A stretch of DNA of 38,019 bases from a virus (Duplodnaviria > Caudoviricetes): the IMG/VR virus record IMGVR_UViG_3300032212_000072, positions 1 through 38,019 of that record; one strand, written 5' to 3'. The notes beneath the pieces were generated by a model. That model saw only the letters and a list, made by a program, of their open reading frames with translations. It made no database searches and was not told the DNA's origin. Shown piece after piece: positions 1 to 30,722 of the stretch (position 1 is the stretch's first letter; each line of letters opens with the position of its first letter). Both the position numbers and the translations under genes were made by a program.

Positions 1-127
1 TTGAAAGAAACATCAGGGCTAACTCATCGAAATACGATAACTGGATGCAGTTACAGGACGCTCATGATGGGGTTGCGGTTATGCTTGGCGGAGGTGCTTC
101 GATTAATGACAATATCGAGGATATCCG
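1..127. repeat. Terminal direct repeat, copy 1 (127 bp, identical to 37893-38019); circular assembly overlap
   Basis: Exact identity of both ends. An ORF reads in frame across the junction. Confidence 0.95.
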
Positions 128-1271
128 TGAATTACAGAAAAACGGTGCGACAATCTTTGCCATGAACGCCGCCTCACAATGGGCGCGAGGGCATGGAATT
201 GAGGTTGATTATCAGGTTATTGTCGACGCGAAAGAGGAGACAGCAAGCCTGGTGGACTCTGGCGCGAACGCGCATCTATTTGCATCACAGTGCAACGAAA
301 AGACGCTCGAAAAATCAAAAAACCTTACTCTATGGCACTTGGAACTAGGCAACATAGAGTCATTCTTTCCGCAGGAGAGGGTGAAGAAAGGCGGTTATGT
401 GCTTGTAGGCGGCGGCGCTTCTGTGGGTAACTCTGCATTATGCGTTGCATATACACAGGGATTTCGTGATCTACACGTGTTCGGTTACGATAGCTCGCAT
501 AAGGACGGTCAATCGCACGCCTATTCTCAGCCGATGAATGAATTTATGCCTACCACAGAGGTTAAGTGGGCTGGGCGGACATTTACTGTATCCGTGGCAA
601 TGAAGGCGCAGGCCGAGAAATTTCAGATTACCTCACAAGCATTAAAGCAGGCGGGCTGTACATTCCATATCTACGGTGATGGCCTACTTCAAACCATGTA
701 CAACTCAAAGCCGACTGATTTATCTGAGAAAGATAAGTACCAGCTAATGTGGCAGTTTGATGATTATCGCCAGTGCTCCCCGGGTGAGAATATCGCAGAT
801 TTCTTTATCAGCATGGTTAAACCCGAGGGGCTTATTATTGATTTTGGTTGCGGCACAGGCCGTGCGGGGATTAAGTTTGCACAGCATGGGCTTGAGACGC
901 TGCTGATTGATTTCACAGATAATAGCCGGGATGAAGAGGCGCAATCGCTTCCGTTCTTACAGTGGGACTTAACCCAGCCATGTCCAGCTATGTCGGAGTA
1001 CGGGTTTTGCACAGATGTCATGGAGCATATACCCACCAAGGATGTAGAGACGGTCATTGATAATATTATGGCCGCATCTAAAAACGTGTTTTTCCAAATC
1101 AGCACAGTAGAGGATCATTTCGGCGCGGCTATTGATCATCCGCTACATCTAACTGTAAAGCCGCATGAGTGGTGGAAAGGTCTGCTCTCAAAGTACCGTA
1201 TTGAGTGGGACCAGGATCAGGGCAACGCATCATTATTCTATGTTAAACAACAGGAGCATTCACATGAGTGA
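45..1271 (+). CDS. DUF115/MptE/Maf-like domain fused to class I SAM-dependent methyltransferase (true start at 37784 across the junction, about 459 aa)
   Basis: N-terminal GGGASI...IFAMN...VIVD and GFRDLHVFGYDSS motifs typical of DUF115-like proteins. C-terminal IIDFGCGTGR SAM motif and CTDVMEHI. Confidence 0.75.
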   Translation: MQLQDAHDGVAVMLGGGASINDNIEDIRELQKNGATIFAMNAASQWARGHGIEVDYQVIVDAKEETASLVDSGANAHLFASQCNEKTLEKSKNLTLWHLELGNIESFFPQERVKKGGYVLVGGGASVGNSALCVAYTQGFRDLHVFGYDSSHKDGQSHAYSQPMNEFMPTTEVKWAGRTFTVSVAMKAQAEKFQITSQALKQAGCTFHIYGDGLLQTMYNSKPTDLSEKDKYQLMWQFDDYRQCSPGENIADFFISMVKPEGLIIDFGCGTGRAGIKFAQHGLETLLIDFTDNSRDEEAQSLPFLQWDLTQPCPAMSEYGFCTDVMEHIPTKDVETVIDNIMAASKNVFFQISTVEDHFGAAIDHPLHLTVKPHEWWKGLLSKYRIEWDQDQGNASLFYVKQQEHSHE

Positions 1272-24990: not shown

Positions 24991-25305
24991 ATGAAAAGAC
25001 GTAATTTTATCAAGTCATTGATTGGATTGGTTGCGGCCCCTGTCGTCGCTAAGGCGTCAACAGAAATCGTCGAGGGCCCAGCCAGCGTTGATGTCCTGAA
25101 AGAGCAGGGTAGGGTCCAGCATGAGCCAGTACGTGAGCCGTTTGACTGGAGCCATTATGACCGCGATAAGCTCATGCAAATCTTTAAAACCACAAAAAGA
25201 TTTCGGGATAAGATGGGCAGGCCAACCACCCTACATGAGATTTCCGAGACTTTTAAGCAGATGGCGATTGAGAACCATAGGGTTCCTAAAGCGCTGCGGC
25301 GATAA
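24991..25305 (+). CDS. Protein with twin-arginine (Tat)-like signal peptide
   Basis: GAGGAG RBS, MKRRNFIKSLIGLVAAPVVAKA. Confidence 0.6.
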   Translation: MKRRNFIKSLIGLVAAPVVAKASTEIVEGPASVDVLKEQGRVQHEPVREPFDWSHYDRDKLMQIFKTTKRFRDKMGRPTTLHEISETFKQMAIENHRVPKALRR

Positions 25306-25403: not shown

Positions 25404-25916
25404 ATGAAAAGACGTAATTTCTTAAAGGTTATTATCGGGACTGTTGTAGCTGGGGCCACAGGTAAATCAATCGCCTCAACTGAGACAGTTATAATACCTC
25501 AGTCTGATCGCGCTATCCCAATGCCAGGAGTACAATATACCTTCAACCCAAAGCATATTAATACTGGGCTAGCCATGACGCCCAGACCCGATACGGGTTG
25601 GGAGGTGCTGAATATTACACCTAATGATATATTCCATCCGGTATACCATCACACAGGGCCAAAGCCTTGCGGAAAGATCGCCATGTACGCAACTAAGCAG
25701 TTTAAGCGTGGAGACCCAGTAAGGCACACAGATTTTGTGGCTACAGATATGACGCCCATGAAGCGCAGTGGCAAATGTGGATCATGTGGCGGTGCGATAG
25801 GTCCGCTCGGTGATAAGTGTCTACGCGGCATGGATGAGAGGTTTGATGAAGCGCGCAGGATTAAGGCAGAGCTAGGACCATATTGGGAGGCATACAATGC
25901 TGCTAAGAGGGGGTAG
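25404..25916 (+). CDS. Protein with twin-arginine (Tat)-like signal peptide
   Basis: GAGGGG RBS, MKRRNFLKVIIGTVVAGATGKSIA. Confidence 0.6.
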   Translation: MKRRNFLKVIIGTVVAGATGKSIASTETVIIPQSDRAIPMPGVQYTFNPKHINTGLAMTPRPDTGWEVLNITPNDIFHPVYHHTGPKPCGKIAMYATKQFKRGDPVRHTDFVATDMTPMKRSGKCGSCGGAIGPLGDKCLRGMDERFDEARRIKAELGPYWEAYNAAKRG

Positions 25917-25975: not shown

Positions 25976-26302
25976 ATGGCTGCCGGACGTAAGACAGGCG
26001 GTCGCCAGAAAGGCACTCCCAACAAGAAGACACGGGAGATACAATCCCTGCTTGATTCACTTGGCTGTGACCCTGTAGAAGGTATGGTTAAGATCGCAAT
26101 GGATGAGAACAACCCGCCTGAACTACGTGGCCGCATGTTTTCTGAGCTATCACAGTACGTATACCCTAAGCGCAAGTCTATCGAGGTTGCTGCTGAAGTA
26201 ACCACTAACTTCGTTGTAGACTCCAACCCCCTAAGCGTCGATGAATGGCAGACAAAACACAAACCATCTGGCGACCCCAGCCAGGTCCCCAGCACGCATT
26301 AG
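25976..26302 (+). CDS. terS: Terminase small subunit
   Basis: KTGGRQKGTPNK motif, directly upstream of and overlapping terL. Confidence 0.75.
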   Translation: MAAGRKTGGRQKGTPNKKTREIQSLLDSLGCDPVEGMVKIAMDENNPPELRGRMFSELSQYVYPKRKSIEVAAEVTTNFVVDSNPLSVDEWQTKHKPSGDPSQVPSTH

Positions 26303-28494
26303 TCGAATGCCCCATATTTGAGATATTTTATGGGGGCAGTCGTGGAGGCGGTAAGACTGATGGGATGTTGGGTAAGTGGGCAATTAAGGCTAGCCGATAC
26401 GGTGAGGGCGCTGTAGGCGTATTCTTCCGCAAGACCCGAGAGGATTTGAAAGAGGCCATCGAGCGTAGCAAGCAGCTCTATGCACCATTAGGGGCTAAGT
26501 ACACAAAGCCAGAGTGGGTGTTTCCTAACGGGGCGCGCCTTAAATTCCAGTATCTTGAGCGAGACAAGGATGCTGAGAACTACCAAGGCCATAACTACAC
26601 TGACCTATTCTTTGAAGAACTCACACACTGGGCAGACCCCGGCCCCGTCAATAAACTCAAGGCAACCCTACGTAGCGCCACGGGTGTTCCGACTCAATTC
26701 CATGCCACGGGCAACCCTGGCGGCCCCGGTCATAACTGGGTCAAAGCTAGATACATCGACCCTGCTCCCGGCGGGTTTGAGCGATTAACCGAGGAGTTTG
26801 AGAACCCGTGGACAGGTGAGAAACAGACGCTAGATCGAATATTCATTCCATCCAAACTCACTGACAATCCGCTTTTGCTTGATTCAGACCCCTTATACAT
26901 CGCTAAATTGCAGCAATCAGGCAGCAAAGAGCTTGTGAGGGCGTGGCTAATGGGGGATTGGAATGTTATCGAGGGTGCGTACTTCGATTGCTGGTCTGAT
27001 GAGTTGATTATAAAGCCTTGTAAGCTGCCTGAGCATTGGACGCGCTTTAGGTCGTTTGATTGGGGGAGCGCCAGGCCGTTCTCATGCGGTTGGTGGGCGG
27101 TGGCCTCAGAGGACTTTATACACCCAAATGGACAGGTTATCCCCAAGAACGCATTAGTTCGATATCGTGAGTGGTACGGGTCGAGCAGCCCTAATGTTGG
27201 TCTTAAGATGACCGTTGAACAAGTTGCTAAAGGTATTGCAGGGCGTGAGAAAGATGATGTTAAAATTCATTACGGTGTTGCAGACCCGGCTATATTTACT
27301 CAAGACGGCGGGCCATCAATGGCGGAACGTATGGCAATTGCGACCAATAATAGTGTAATATGGCGGAGATCCGACAATAAGCGTGTTGCTACGCACGGTC
27401 ATATTGGTGGTTGGGATCAAATGAGAGCCAGGATGATCGGCGATGATAAGCCGATGATTTACTTCTTTGATACTTGCGTCGATACTATACGCACTGTTCC
27501 GTCACTACAGCATGACGAGGATAAGCCGGAGGATTTGGATACGGACGGCGAAGACCACTGTTTTGCAGCAGGAACAATGGTTAGCACCCCATATGGAGAT
27601 GTACCGATAGAGCAAATGCCGGAGAGTGGTTTTGTGAATACTCGTCATGGCGTAAGAAAATACAGGTCTGCGGGGCTAGTTAAGCAACAAGCAGATATCG
27701 TTAAACTGACCTTTTCGGATGGCCGCGTTGTTCATTGCACGCCAGACCATCGTTTTATCTCGGAGGACATATGGACGGAAGCGCAGAACATGCTAGACCA
27801 AACCCTTACCCTTTATCGAACACCATTCAAGACTACAATGGTCAGCGATATTACAAGTGTGGCCCGTACTTTCAGCGCAAAGGCACAAGACTGCATCGAC
27901 TGGTTTGGGAGGATGCCAATGGCTCGATACCTGACGGGTATCATATCCACCACATTGACCACGACCGCAACAATAATGTCCTCGAGAACCTCCGGCTTAT
28001 TAGCGCCAGCGACCATGCCAAGCACCACTACACGCCAAGGGGCGACATCAAGAAAGCAAGGGAAGCGGCTGCCAAATGGCACGGCTCGAAAGAGGGTCGC
28101 GAATGGCATAAGCGCCATTATGATGAAAGCATCGCTCCGAAGATGCGAGCTAAGACTACTGGAACATGCCAGGTCTGCGGCGCAACCTACGAAGCATCAC
28201 TGGTTCACGCGCATAGAAAGAAGTATTGCAGTAATAACTGCAAAGCGCGTGCGCTGCGTCAGCGTAGAAAAGGGCGCGCCGGATGATGTATACTGCATAA
28301 CAGTGCCGAGTGTAGGTGAGTTTTTGTTGTCTGGTGGGGTGGCGGTATCTAATTGCGCCGACGAAATACGCTATGCGTGTATGTCTCGGCCTTACACCCA
28401 GCCAGGACCGGCAGAAGAGAAGCCAATTAAGGGCATTGAGAGTATGTCACTTAATGACTTGTGGAACGATAGGCCAAAAGATAGGCGGATTTGA
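26245..28494 (+). CDS. terL: Terminase large subunit containing an intein (484 aa after splicing)
   Basis: Walker A GGSRGGGKT, Walker B LFFEE, TGNPGG, FDWG nuclease motif. EDH|CADE motif split by the intein. Confidence 0.95.
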   Translation: MADKTQTIWRPQPGPQHALVECPIFEIFYGGSRGGGKTDGMLGKWAIKASRYGEGAVGVFFRKTREDLKEAIERSKQLYAPLGAKYTKPEWVFPNGARLKFQYLERDKDAENYQGHNYTDLFFEELTHWADPGPVNKLKATLRSATGVPTQFHATGNPGGPGHNWVKARYIDPAPGGFERLTEEFENPWTGEKQTLDRIFIPSKLTDNPLLLDSDPLYIAKLQQSGSKELVRAWLMGDWNVIEGAYFDCWSDELIIKPCKLPEHWTRFRSFDWGSARPFSCGWWAVASEDFIHPNGQVIPKNALVRYREWYGSSSPNVGLKMTVEQVAKGIAGREKDDVKIHYGVADPAIFTQDGGPSMAERMAIATNNSVIWRRSDNKRVATHGHIGGWDQMRARMIGDDKPMIYFFDTCVDTIRTVPSLQHDEDKPEDLDTDGEDHCFAAGTMVSTPYGDVPIEQMPESGFVNTRHGVRKYRSAGLVKQQADIVKLTFSDGRVVHCTPDHRFISEDIWTEAQNMLDQTLTLYRTPFKTTMVSDITSVARTFSAKAQDCIDWFGRMPMARYLTGIISTTLTTTATIMSSRTSGLLAPATMPSTTTRQGATSRKQGKRLPNGTARKRVANGISAIMMKASLRRCELRLLEHARSAAQPTKHHWFTRIERSIAVITAKRVRCVSVEKGAPDDVYCITVPSVGEFLLSGGVAVSNCADEIRYACMSRPYTQPGPAEEKPIKGIESMSLNDLWNDRPKDRRI
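27559..28353 (+). mobile_element. Intein (265 aa) in TerL nuclease domain
   Basis: Block A CFAAGTMV, block B CTPDHRF, block F DVYCITV, block G VAVSN followed by +1 Cys. Confidence 0.92.
27771..28286 (+). CDS. HNH homing endonuclease nested out of frame inside the intein (171 aa)
   Basis: GGAGG RBS at 27762-27766. LHRLVWE...IHHIDHDRNNN..ENL HNH motif and C-terminal CQVC...YCSNNC zinc finger. Confidence 0.88.
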   Translation: MDGSAEHARPNPYPLSNTIQDYNGQRYYKCGPYFQRKGTRLHRLVWEDANGSIPDGYHIHHIDHDRNNNVLENLRLISASDHAKHHYTPRGDIKKAREAAAKWHGSKEGREWHKRHYDESIAPKMRAKTTGTCQVCGATYEASLVHAHRKKYCSNNCKARALRQRRKGRAG

Positions 28495-30722
28495 TGCAAG
28501 AAGAATCAAAAAAAGACTTCGGCAGTGATGGGCCAGGATTGTTTAAATATTGGCTCGCCGAATATCAATTAGCCTGTAAGCGTGAGGCCACATGGTCCAA
28601 GCAGGGCGATAATGTCATCAAGAAGTATGAAGACGACCGACCTGAATACAGCGAGAGCACTGGATTCAACATCCTGTGGTCAAATACAGAAACATTGCTC
28701 CCCGCAATGTACTCCAGAACACCTAAACCAGTAGTATCCCGTAGATTTAAAGACGATAACGAGCTAGGCATTCAAGCTAGCCGCATCCTACAGCGCGCCC
28801 TTGAGGTATGCCTGGATAGTTATGATTTCGATTCTGAGATACGCGCCGCCGTTCAAGACCGATTGTTACCCGGTCGAGGTCAAGCGCGAGTACGCTATAT
28901 TCCAAAGATGGAGCAGACCCCTGTACCGTTACCCGTTGACGAGCAGGGACAGGCGATAATCAAAGAAGGCCAGGAGGTGATCACACATCAGGGCATCCAA
29001 TGCTGCATGGAAGACCGCGTAGTATACGAGGAGGCCCGCGTTGAATACGTGTACTGGAAGCACTTTAAGCACGGCCCAGGCCGCGTATGGCGAGAGGTTC
29101 CGTGGGTATCGTATGACGTGTATTTGTCACGCGATCAAGCAAAAAAGCGATTTGGAACCCTTGCTGAAAAGCTAAATTACAACCACAGCCCCGACAAGGT
29201 TGACGAAAAAGATAATAATGCCGAGCTATTTAAGCAGGTGCATATTGTTGAAATATGGTCAAAAACAGATCAAAAAGTAATATGGATATCGCCTGACTAC
29301 AAAGAAGGGCCGCTAGATACCAAGGCCGCACCCATAAGCTTTAGAGACGGATGTCCGTCGCCCAAGCCGTTATTGAGCGTAACGACCACGAAAAGCCTTA
29401 TCCCTATCCCTGAATATAAGCTGTATCAGGACCAAGCCAAAGAACTTGATAAAATCACAGCAAGACTGGATAAGGTTGTCGATGCGATCAAGGTGCGCGG
29501 CCTGTATGCGGGTGATGCAGAGGCTATCCCACAATTGTTGCAGGGTGAAAACAATGAGTTAATCCCGGTCCGCGACTGGATGGCCTATATAGATAAAGGC
29601 GGCGTCGATAGCCTTGTATCATGGCTACCCGTCGATCAATTAACGCAGGTTGCTGCTGCGCTATACGAAGCACGCGACCGCGCCAAAGAGGTTTTGTATG
29701 AGCTAACGGGCATATCAGATATTGTGCGTGGTGCATCAAATCCGAATGAAACACTAGGCGCTCAGAAGATTAAGGGCCGCTATGCGGCGATGCGCTTTGA
29801 TACCCGTAAGGAGTCTGTCGCTCATTTTGTGCGTGATATTATCCGTCTTAAAGCCGAGATCATAGCCGAGCAATTCAGCCCCAAAACACTCGCCTTGATG
29901 ACGGGTATGGAGGTCACGGACGAGGTGATGGAGTTGTTACGCAATGACCCTGCCAGGTCGTTCATGATTGATATTGAGACCGATTCAACCATCGCCGCCG
30001 ATGAGATGGAAGAAAAAGAGCGCCGGACCGAGTTTTTAACGGCTGTTGGCGGGTTTATGGAAAAAGCTGTTCCGCTGGTCCAGCAGGCTCCACAAATGAC
30101 CAAGATAGCCGGCGAGATGCTGCTATTCGCAGTGCGTGGCTTCAGGGCAGGCCGGGAGCTTGAATCATCCTTTGAGGATTTGGTCGAGGGCATGGGTCAA
30201 GAAGACCCACAGCAGAACCCAGCCATGCTCATCGAGCAGGTTAATATGCTGACTCAGCAGAACCAGGAGCTACAGGAGGCAGCGAATACTAATCAAATCA
30301 AGGCCAATACTGATATACAGATTGCGCAGATGAAGATGCAGGCGCAGCAAGTAGAATCTGATGTTAAGCTTAGAGCCGATATTCAGATTGCACAGATACA
30401 GGCGGAGGCCGATATTCAGATTGCGCAGCTTAAAGAGCAGGGAGAGCTGGGCAAGGCCGCACAGGAAAGACAATCTACGTCAGAGCAGAACGCTAACGCA
30501 CGCGCTGAGATTGAGCGCGAAATAGCAGATATACGCGCTAATGCAGAGGTTGAGGTCGCTAAGATTATGGAGCAGGCCGAGGCGGCCAGGGTGCAACTCG
30601 AAGTTGGCCCGCCCGCCATGCCGGATATCTATGTAAACATTGAAAAGGACGGCAATAAGACGATTAAGATTGATAAGGGCGCGGACGGTAAGATTTCAGG
30701 CGCTACAGTTGAAGCAGAATAA
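28491..30722 (+). CDS. Portal protein with C-terminal coiled-coil barrel
   Basis: 743 aa after terL, ELTGISDIVRG...ETLGAQ motif, Gln-rich helical tail. Confidence 0.85.
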   Translation: MMQEESKKDFGSDGPGLFKYWLAEYQLACKREATWSKQGDNVIKKYEDDRPEYSESTGFNILWSNTETLLPAMYSRTPKPVVSRRFKDDNELGIQASRILQRALEVCLDSYDFDSEIRAAVQDRLLPGRGQARVRYIPKMEQTPVPLPVDEQGQAIIKEGQEVITHQGIQCCMEDRVVYEEARVEYVYWKHFKHGPGRVWREVPWVSYDVYLSRDQAKKRFGTLAEKLNYNHSPDKVDEKDNNAELFKQVHIVEIWSKTDQKVIWISPDYKEGPLDTKAAPISFRDGCPSPKPLLSVTTTKSLIPIPEYKLYQDQAKELDKITARLDKVVDAIKVRGLYAGDAEAIPQLLQGENNELIPVRDWMAYIDKGGVDSLVSWLPVDQLTQVAAALYEARDRAKEVLYELTGISDIVRGASNPNETLGAQKIKGRYAAMRFDTRKESVAHFVRDIIRLKAEIIAEQFSPKTLALMTGMEVTDEVMELLRNDPARSFMIDIETDSTIAADEMEEKERRTEFLTAVGGFMEKAVPLVQQAPQMTKIAGEMLLFAVRGFRAGRELESSFEDLVEGMGQEDPQQNPAMLIEQVNMLTQQNQELQEAANTNQIKANTDIQIAQMKMQAQQVESDVKLRADIQIAQIQAEADIQIAQLKEQGELGKAAQERQSTSEQNANARAEIEREIADIRANAEVEVAKIMEQAEAARVQLEVGPPAMPDIYVNIEKDGNKTIKIDKGADGKISGATVEAE

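Follow-up and report, generated by a model that had tools for sequence, protein, structure and literature searches.

Inteins that house a nuclease gene in a reading frame other than their own have been described before. The accessible sections of Gosselin (2025; 10.1101/2025.01.02.630785) report frame-3 endonuclease VII-like nucleases and antisense nucleases in inteins, many of them in the gene for the large terminase subunit (terL). They propose an origin by invasion of free-standing genes, list HNH nucleases only as in-frame elements and, from a survey, call such layouts rare and suggest that they may slide into frame. A cyanobacterial DnaX intein with a LAGLIDADG nuclease in the +2 frame was described by Phillips, DeSimone and Gogarten (2026; 10.64898/2026.09.14.751524). 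An out-of-frame HNH nuclease without an intein, the ShiLan domain, is presented in the accessible part of Arsenault et al. (2025; PMC11855218), and in fractured genes (Dassa et al., 2009, as cited in the accessible sections of Gosselin, 2025) split-intein halves flank a free-standing nuclease. The present study concerns the terL gene of virus record IMGVR_UViG_3300032212_000072, a complete phage record with direct terminal repeats whose entire 38,019 bp are referred to below as the window. In this gene, a separate HNH endonuclease gene is overprinted on the linker of a predicted intein. In the reading that we favour, to which a probability of roughly 0.8 was assigned from sequence and structural models, terL would carry a class 1 intein whose linker is spliced out, and the +2 HNH protein, translated from its own ribosome-binding site, would act as homing endonuclease.

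A predicted intein with an overprinted HNH gene in terL

The terL precursor (26245..28494; all features described here lie on the + strand) comprises 749 amino acids and matches Terminase_6N (E 2.7e-8). It is encoded by the only terL of the genome, since a tblastn search of the genome with the N-extein as query yielded no second copy. Reading frame, motifs and a modelled Hint fold all agreed with a first-pass annotation of the window, which had placed, within the terminase nuclease motif, an intein of 265 residues (C439-N703 of TerL; 27559..28353) that is preceded by EDH and followed by CADE, the Cys of which is the +1 residue. The N-extein (438 residues; 26245..27558) ends in DGEDH, and the C-extein (46 residues; 28354..28494) starts with the +1 Cys and bears the D-x-x-RY end of the nuclease motif. 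Without the insert, TerL has 484 residues. As a single, essential terL is present in a complete genome, the insert presumably has to be removed from the protein by splicing.

The residues expected of a class 1 intein were present: C1, T61-P-D-H64 (block B, TPDH; 27739-27750), a terminal N265 and the +1 Cys. C1, T61, H64 and N265 were unchanged across 29 aligned inteins, and block F (VYCITV) starts at 28288. Both intein ends matched the Hint and Intein_splicing models (E 1e-4 and 1e-3, below the Pfam cut-offs). In an AlphaFold model built from the 29-row alignment, intein residues 1-85 and 231-265 formed a Hint fold with high confidence (predicted local distance difference test score, pLDDT, of 82-98 for the blocks), and the middle was poorly modelled (38-63). 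The best match of the model in the PDB was the Ssp DnaE intein (E 8.5e-7), and those listed among its 32 matches at E <= 0.001 were all inteins or intein-like. On these grounds the terL insert is predicted to be a splicing class 1 intein. Profile scans of the window genome gave no second intein. The intein is encoded contiguously, in an open frame, and thus does not have the fractured, split-intein layout. Its linker was found to be free of stop codons and rich in Thr, Ala, Arg and Ser (25, 19, 18 and 14 of 171 residues), in agreement with its earlier description.

On this linker lies an HNH gene of 171 codons (27771..28286) that runs from ATG to stop in frame +2 (= -1) relative to terL. The ATG takes its TG from the codon for intein Trp72, and the stop ends 1 nt 5' of the block F codons. 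A Shine-Dalgarno (SD)-like site, GGAGG (27762..27766), is located 4 nt 5' of the ATG, within the intein codons for S-E-D. The product matched HNH_3 (E 2.6e-17) and phrog_15471 (E 1.3e-36), and the only Pfam matches at E <= 1 were HNH_3 and HNH, with none of the endonuclease VII type. Its HNH core (H60 H61 D63, N68 N69 N73, H82 H86; 27891..28028) was invariant across 7 aligned relatives, and the core pattern was kept in 76 of the 86 related +2 clusters described below. A Cys4 zinc finger (C133, C136, C153 and C157; 28167..28241) weakly resembles the YacG/FCS type (Z 4.5, root-mean-square deviation [rmsd] 4.1, 41 aligned residues). Coordinates and domain matches, including profile searches in both frames, thereby bore out the original description of a complete HNH endonuclease with a Cys4 finger and its own GGAGG that ends just before block F. 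The model of this protein had a mean pLDDT of 85. Three methods, each with a modest match, identified the homing endonuclease I-HmuI as the nearest solved structure: a profile search (E 2.8e-4), Foldseek (E 0.04) and VIA-align (Z 7.5, rmsd 11.2, 109 aligned). At E <= 0.001, Foldseek with this model returned zero HNH matches.

The out-of-frame layout was also examined at contig level. One contig with a depth of 2,433, possibly from the source sample, spans 27371-28700 with 0 differing letters and 0 gaps, so that over this range no compensating indels were found and the HNH stays out of frame. A 199-nt contig of another study was identical to 28025-28223. These results confirmed that a separate HNH gene is overprinted on the intein linker and that the layout is no artefact.

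Recurrence of the architecture in an HNH family

Relatives of the element were collected with intein and HNH queries. An intein-region query retrieved 22 proteins, which were compared at protein level. Nineteen of these were TerL-type precursors interrupted at the same EDH site, each with a linker of full length and free of stops, two were mini-inteins of 124 and 127 residues at the same site (P0020, P0021), and one was at a neighbouring site. In two of the TerL precursors (P0005, P0015), a second intein was observed in the ATPase part besides that at the nuclease site. With the intein protein as query, no relative was found in viral contigs and one partial match in phage records; this failure is attributed to the poor conservation of the linker, and the HNH query succeeded. 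HNH queries gave 8 loci, with 15 of 77 phage records examined. With an HNH alignment as query, the best 80 of at least 424 viral loci, the best 80 of at least 366 metagenome loci and 46 of at least 46 genome loci were taken, a choice of best-scoring loci that makes the sample lean towards near relatives. An HNH score of 90 was reached by 205 of 230 rows, which formed 153 clusters at 90% identity; the 25 loci left out include a weak in-frame match (L227) and a +2 element (L214).

Among the 153 clusters, 86 (window included) were open inteins with the HNH at +2 and 13 were open inteins with the HNH at +1. The remainder consisted of 24 split, 17 intein-free and 13 partial elements, and an in-frame HNH occurred in none. 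The flanks of these elements were variants of the terminase motif D-x-x-D/H...D-x-x-RY, interrupted at a few neighbouring positions. The collection of homologous terL inteins, which had been suggested together with the original description, thus showed a recurring layout with 99 open clusters in shifted frames. The count of 99 open clusters against zero in-frame ones bears on the model of "splicing first, nuclease later". A search of a whole protein library gave 818 HNH clusters at E <= 1e-30, and among the best 150 of 818 none carried an intein N-part on the HNH. One singleton among these 150 (P0130) has an HNH that reads in frame into an intein C-part and the C-extein, and represents either a genuine split form, half fused, or a frameshift introduced by assembly. 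A search for longer fused proteins, in itself weak evidence, gave one unrelated double-domain match.

Among cultured phages, TJE1, phiCDHM19 and Highwayman have open forms, which also occur in bacterial genomes from at least seven phyla. A plasmid of Halobacterium sp. GSL-19 (L271:924-3236) bears a provirus-like archaeal terminase intein with a +2 HNH that is annotated only as a Hint-domain protein. Annotations of the three phages and of the Halobacterium plasmid list a long terL only, and that of Lactobacillus phage CL2 lists a truncated terL whose second half is missing. Overprinted HNH genes are therefore missed by annotation, and inteins filed as "degenerate" may be actively homing.

Selection on the two reading frames

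The chance that an intein frame is open was estimated by re-drawing the synonymous codons of the HNH gene. In the window, the intein frame stayed open in 1.3-1.7% of the re-draws. For the family, re-draws predicted 1.8 open frames in 78, and 99 of 123 intein-associated clusters were open. As this class is stop-free by definition, the informative contrast is between 99/123 and the free or split HNH genes, of which 0/40 were open in either of the other frames. The unused third frame showed no depletion (19.3 stops observed, 19.4 expected). Control genes had on average 7.3 stops in the frame used by +2 elements and 20.4 in the other; the far smaller number of stops to be purged accounts for the excess of +2 over +1 elements (86 versus 13).

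Differences within 23 pairs of +2 elements were concentrated at third positions of HNH codons. Median ratios of nonsynonymous to synonymous substitution rates (dN/dS) in these pairs, which are not mutually independent, were 0.14-0.26 for the HNH frame and 1.3-1.4 for the intein frame. The same frame in 31 pairs of free or split genes, used as non-coding control, gave 1.1-1.3, and 47 pairs of +1 elements showed the same pattern. Taken over the family, dN/dS in the HNH frame ranged from 0.09 to 0.26. The HNH frames of the window and its relative L001 were 56% identical, their intein frames 25%. The HNH frame is under purifying selection, and the middle of the linker is its passive, stop-free shadow: apart from the loss of its stops, the intein frame drifts in the manner of the controls.

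The earlier proposal of 516 bp of fully dual-coding DNA accordingly stood at the ends of the overlap and failed in the middle, where stop avoidance is the sole constraint observed on the intein frame. The start of the HNH and its last helix coincide with intein strands 71-85 and 230-238, respectively, and in the model the double constraint is limited to these ends, approximately 14 codons each, on folded Hint strands. The tests of per-frame dN/dS and stop avoidance that accompanied this proposal gave purifying selection on the HNH frame and avoidance of stops in the intein frame.

Other homes of the nuclease and its origin

Most of the split clusters (22 of 24) encode an N-terminal intein half (IntN) of 90-109 residues that ends near the HNH start, and a separate, short C-terminal half (IntC). 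In several of them, IntC has a separate start and an SD-like site approximately 35 codons before the intein end. These split forms constitute a set of unannotated natural split inteins. One lies in the CL2 phage (L013:1730-2680), where a naturally split TerL intein, unannotated, has the HNH gene between its halves. The two other clusters (L020, L202) look like broken open forms; L020, from Clostridium phage phiCD119, is nearly identical to the element of phiCDHM19 (L016), with frame breaks in both frames that reflect either sequencing error or decay. Clean split forms with a named host (L185, L186, L188, L189, L194 and L013) were all from Bacillota, and open forms span many phyla.

Eleven of the 17 intein-free clusters were situated directly behind the end of terL, one was antisense behind it, one preceded the small terminase subunit gene (terS), one was inside terL and three had no clear link to terL. 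In Exiguobacterium phage vB_EauM-23 (MH844558), terL contains a 907-nt insert (L018:1692-2598) that follows a T, ends in G and has a P1-like hairpin. Excision of this insert restores NNHSIDATRY, and the annotated terL stops inside it. The insert had a weak Rfam match (E 4.8), and at the Rfam gathering score no intron was found in 14 loci. From its sequence features, the insert, which carries a family HNH, is likely an unannotated group I intron at the same motif.

In an unrooted FastTree phylogeny of the HNH proteins, the four states were clustered yet intermixed, with 24 changes compared with a shuffled mean of 50.5, and strong branches forced 2 changes per label. The window HNH grouped with L001 (support 97); its placement near the free-standing genes of PAE1-like phages had weak support (81). 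Both parties to the invasion of a mini-intein by a free-standing HNH gene, as the first-pass annotation had proposed, exist at terL; the unrooted tree gives no direction.

An unlikely but serious alternative to such direct insertion is that open elements were formed from split inteins (IntN, HNH gene, IntC) that re-joined once stops had been purged. It draws on the 22 genuine-looking split forms with the same HNH family, on the intermixing of architectures on the tree and on the low proportion, approximately 2% of draws, in which direct insertion leaves an open frame. Moreover, the third frame always holds 12-19 stops, so that +1 and +2 types could interconvert only via a split state or a new invasion. 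Against it, the tree is unrooted and its strong branches force only the 2 changes per label, purging some 7 stops singly would be of no advantage before the final one was gone, mini-inteins are found at the same site, and the restriction of split forms in named genomes to Bacillota fits a derived state.

A wider scenario is put forward tentatively, at somewhat less than even odds: a single HNH lineage, with the final codons of the terL nuclease motif as its target, would have boarded a group I intron, split inteins and open inteins of two different frames at that site, and would also persist as a free gene behind terL. Overprinting would then be a stable end state rather than a stage on the way to an in-frame intein, and split inteins would be frame-change intermediates. 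If this is true, the HNH family represents a natural series for the origin of homing inteins, split inteins and mobile introns.

Distribution among related terminases

Of 40 loci encoding the nearest TerL proteins, 35 reached the insertion site; 33 of these were empty and two near-identical loci had the same two-frame intein. The closest TerL (72% identity over 284 columns) was an empty allele. On the extein tree, a single clade of intein-bearing alleles was rejected (p-AU, approximately unbiased test, 8e-53), and in one of three intein groupings tested, the exteins of a sister pair were rejected as sisters (p 3.4e-6). The +1 residue of empty alleles was Ala in 26 and Cys in 2 of 33, which suggests that homing would need to bring the Cys codon.

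The same loci bear on the alternative that the HNH is no homing enzyme but has been domesticated by the terminase as an aid to packaging (GVE2/HK97 gp74 type), which is considered very improbable. The family does keep in or beside terL, with the 11 intein-free clusters directly behind the terL end motif on the same strand, and according to the accessible part of one report (PMC12724721) each of the 89 Skunavirus genomes has a GVE2-like HNH gene between terL and portal, which counts for a role in packaging. However, no family member was found at 38 of the 40 nearest-TerL loci in flanks of up to 2 kb, some shorter, and in the other two it was inside the intein. The I-HmuI-like fold and the relative in a likely group I intron also argue against a packaging helper.

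Probable translation of the HNH gene

For the SD-like site of the window, pairing with the anti-SD sequence was calculated at -9.5 kcal/mol. An ATG was present at the HNH N-terminus in 70/86 of the +2 elements, compared with 32/86 in the third frame, and pairing of -7 kcal/mol or better in 30/86, compared with 6% of 1,164 control windows. A promoter scan of 27300-28600 gave one site (1.8 expected) and none 5' of the HNH gene, and folding that might hide the SD site was no better than in shuffled sequences (z 0.3 to 1.2). A -10-like hexamer 5-8 nt 5' of the ATG occurred in 10/50 relatives without an SD site and in 95/1,369 controls (p 0.003); its frequency in SD-bearing elements (4/32) did not differ from that in the SD-less ones (p 0.55). 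A leaderless promoter in SD-less relatives is thus a weak lead. In many SD-less elements (L026-L043, L057, L127, L165 and L200), TG-n-TAnnnT was observed 6-9 nt 5' of the HNH ATG, a possible extended -10 element with weak statistics. The signals at the start codon suggest that translation of the HNH probably begins at a ribosome-binding site of its own; such a start would, as originally suggested, uncouple nuclease production from splicing.

If the HNH were produced by ribosomal frameshifting into the -1 frame during translation of terL, giving a TerL-IntN-HNH fusion, the +2 (= -1) bias would be explained, and 86 of the 99 open elements are at -1. In addition, the HNH frame of the window is open from 27705, 22 codons 5' of the ATG, and a slippery heptamer was found in this open stretch in 19/86 elements, against 1/86 extein controls. 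This enrichment was gone with matched controls: per 100 codons, heptamers numbered 0.88 in the open stretch and 0.86 in the HNH body, and 1.62 and 0.87 in split elements. The window has no slippery heptamer, 13 elements are at +1 rather than -1, ATG and SD are both enriched at the HNH start, and the +2 bias is explained by stop statistics; frameshifting is therefore held to be a long shot. Displacement of a formerly in-frame nuclease by two compensating indels, through assembly error or decay, is already largely refuted and has next to no probability: in-frame HNH inteins are known (Gosselin, 2025, accessible sections) and a weakly related HNH is in frame within an intein (L227, score 20.7), but the deep contig is gap-free, the HNH reading frame has a start and stop of its own and is still under purifying selection, no open family cluster is in frame (0/99), and a fusion of intein N-part and HNH occurs in 0 of the best 150 library matches.

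Proposed homing cycle

In the favoured homing reading, ribosomes on the terL message would produce the 749-residue precursor, which would splice out the inert linker to yield the 484-residue TerL, and other ribosomes would start internally at ATG 27771 to produce the 171-residue nuclease. Upon co-infection, the nuclease would nick or cut an intein-free terL allele close to its EDH|xxD codons. Repair would then copy the whole intein and most likely also the codon for the +1 Cys, which is absent from the majority of empty alleles.

Several observations weigh against this reading. It is drawn from sequence and structural models, and selection was measured on relatives of the element (best HNH identity 52-55%). 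The penultimate intein residue is Ser264 instead of the usual, though not universal, His; in the 86 +2 relatives, this position was His in 47, Ser in 24 and another residue in 15, counts that, like those of the start ATG, the HNH core pattern and the slippery heptamers, are affected by approximately 8 open clusters with a misplaced intein end in automated parsing. SD pairing was weaker than -5 kcal/mol in 41/86 +2 elements and reached -7 kcal/mol in 0/13 +1 elements, which indicates that the start mechanism is not uniform. Finally, neither the intein clade of the window itself (p-AU 0.053) nor a second intein pair (p 0.37) was significantly incongruent with the extein tree, and the patchy spread, which fits homing, fits repeated loss too.

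Genomic surroundings

A 108-codon gene (25976..26302) that overlaps the terL start, and whose PHROG matches are all unnamed, probably encodes the small terminase subunit, judging by its position. The portal gene (28491..30722; phrog_12082, E 2.9e-173) is immediately 3' of terL. Two adjacent genes 5' of terS (24991-25305 and 25404-25916, +) without Pfam or PHROG matches both begin with MKRRNF, starts that we take to resemble twin-arginine signal peptides. Amid structural genes, 45-1271 (+) encodes an MptE-like domain fused to a methyltransferase domain. Over 26200-27400, low-depth contigs (approximately 10-14) that are 85-94% alike represent a related phage in the same sample; none of those listed spans the intein site.

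Comparison with known systems

I-HmuI is an intron-encoded endonuclease that ends in a helix-turn-helix domain and nicks a single strand. Its structure (PDB 1U3E) matches the window HNH in the N-terminal and HNH core region; the window HNH, unlike I-HmuI, ends in a Cys4 finger.

With a nuclease gene nested out of frame in an open intein, between its splicing blocks, and with purifying selection on the nuclease frame and a relaxed intein frame, both measured on family pairs, the locus belongs to a class of out-of-frame nucleases that is already in print (Gosselin, 2025, accessible sections; Phillips et al., 2026). The literature searched, which did not cover subscription papers, contained no account of a TerL intein with an out-of-frame HNH. 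As far as the accessible sections of Gosselin (2025) describe them, the non-canonical inteins are, like that of the window, contiguous, with the nuclease between the splicing blocks, in frame 3 and on the same strand. Their nuclease is endonuclease VII-like, whereas that of the window is HNH_3/I-HmuI-like with a Cys4 finger. The window family further differs from that class, as there described, by its spread over many bacterial phyla and a halophilic archaeon, its use of both shifted frames and its links to split, intron and free forms.

The fractured-gene layout, as presented in the same sections, is shared by 22-24 relatives of the window, including that in Lactobacillus phage CL2, whereas the window intein is contiguous; the nuclease of Dassa et al. 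(2009) is VSR-like, unlike the window HNH. ShiLan, as described in the accessible part of Arsenault et al. (2025), resembles the window in its out-of-frame HNH, zinc fingers and stop-free insertion in a phage gene, and differs in having no splicing domain, a non-essential methylase as host and no SD site, a leaderless start being proposed. The DnaX intein (Phillips et al., 2026) shares with the window family the +2 reading frame, an SD-like site, a disordered linker, mini and empty alleles, the lack of an in-frame version and omega values that are below 1 for the nuclease frame and exceed 1 for the intein frame. It differs in its LAGLIDADG nuclease, cellular dnaX host and single frame, and no split or free-standing relatives of it were identified.

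With one nuclease occurring at a single site in open, split, intron-borne and free form, in several cases in cultured phages, the "splicing first, nuclease later" model and the origin of homing and split inteins become accessible to experiment. To the described class, the present locus and its relatives add an HNH nuclease, the terL nuclease site, the use of two shifted frames, and the presence of a single HNH lineage at one site of terL in open and split inteins, in a likely group I intron and as a free gene.

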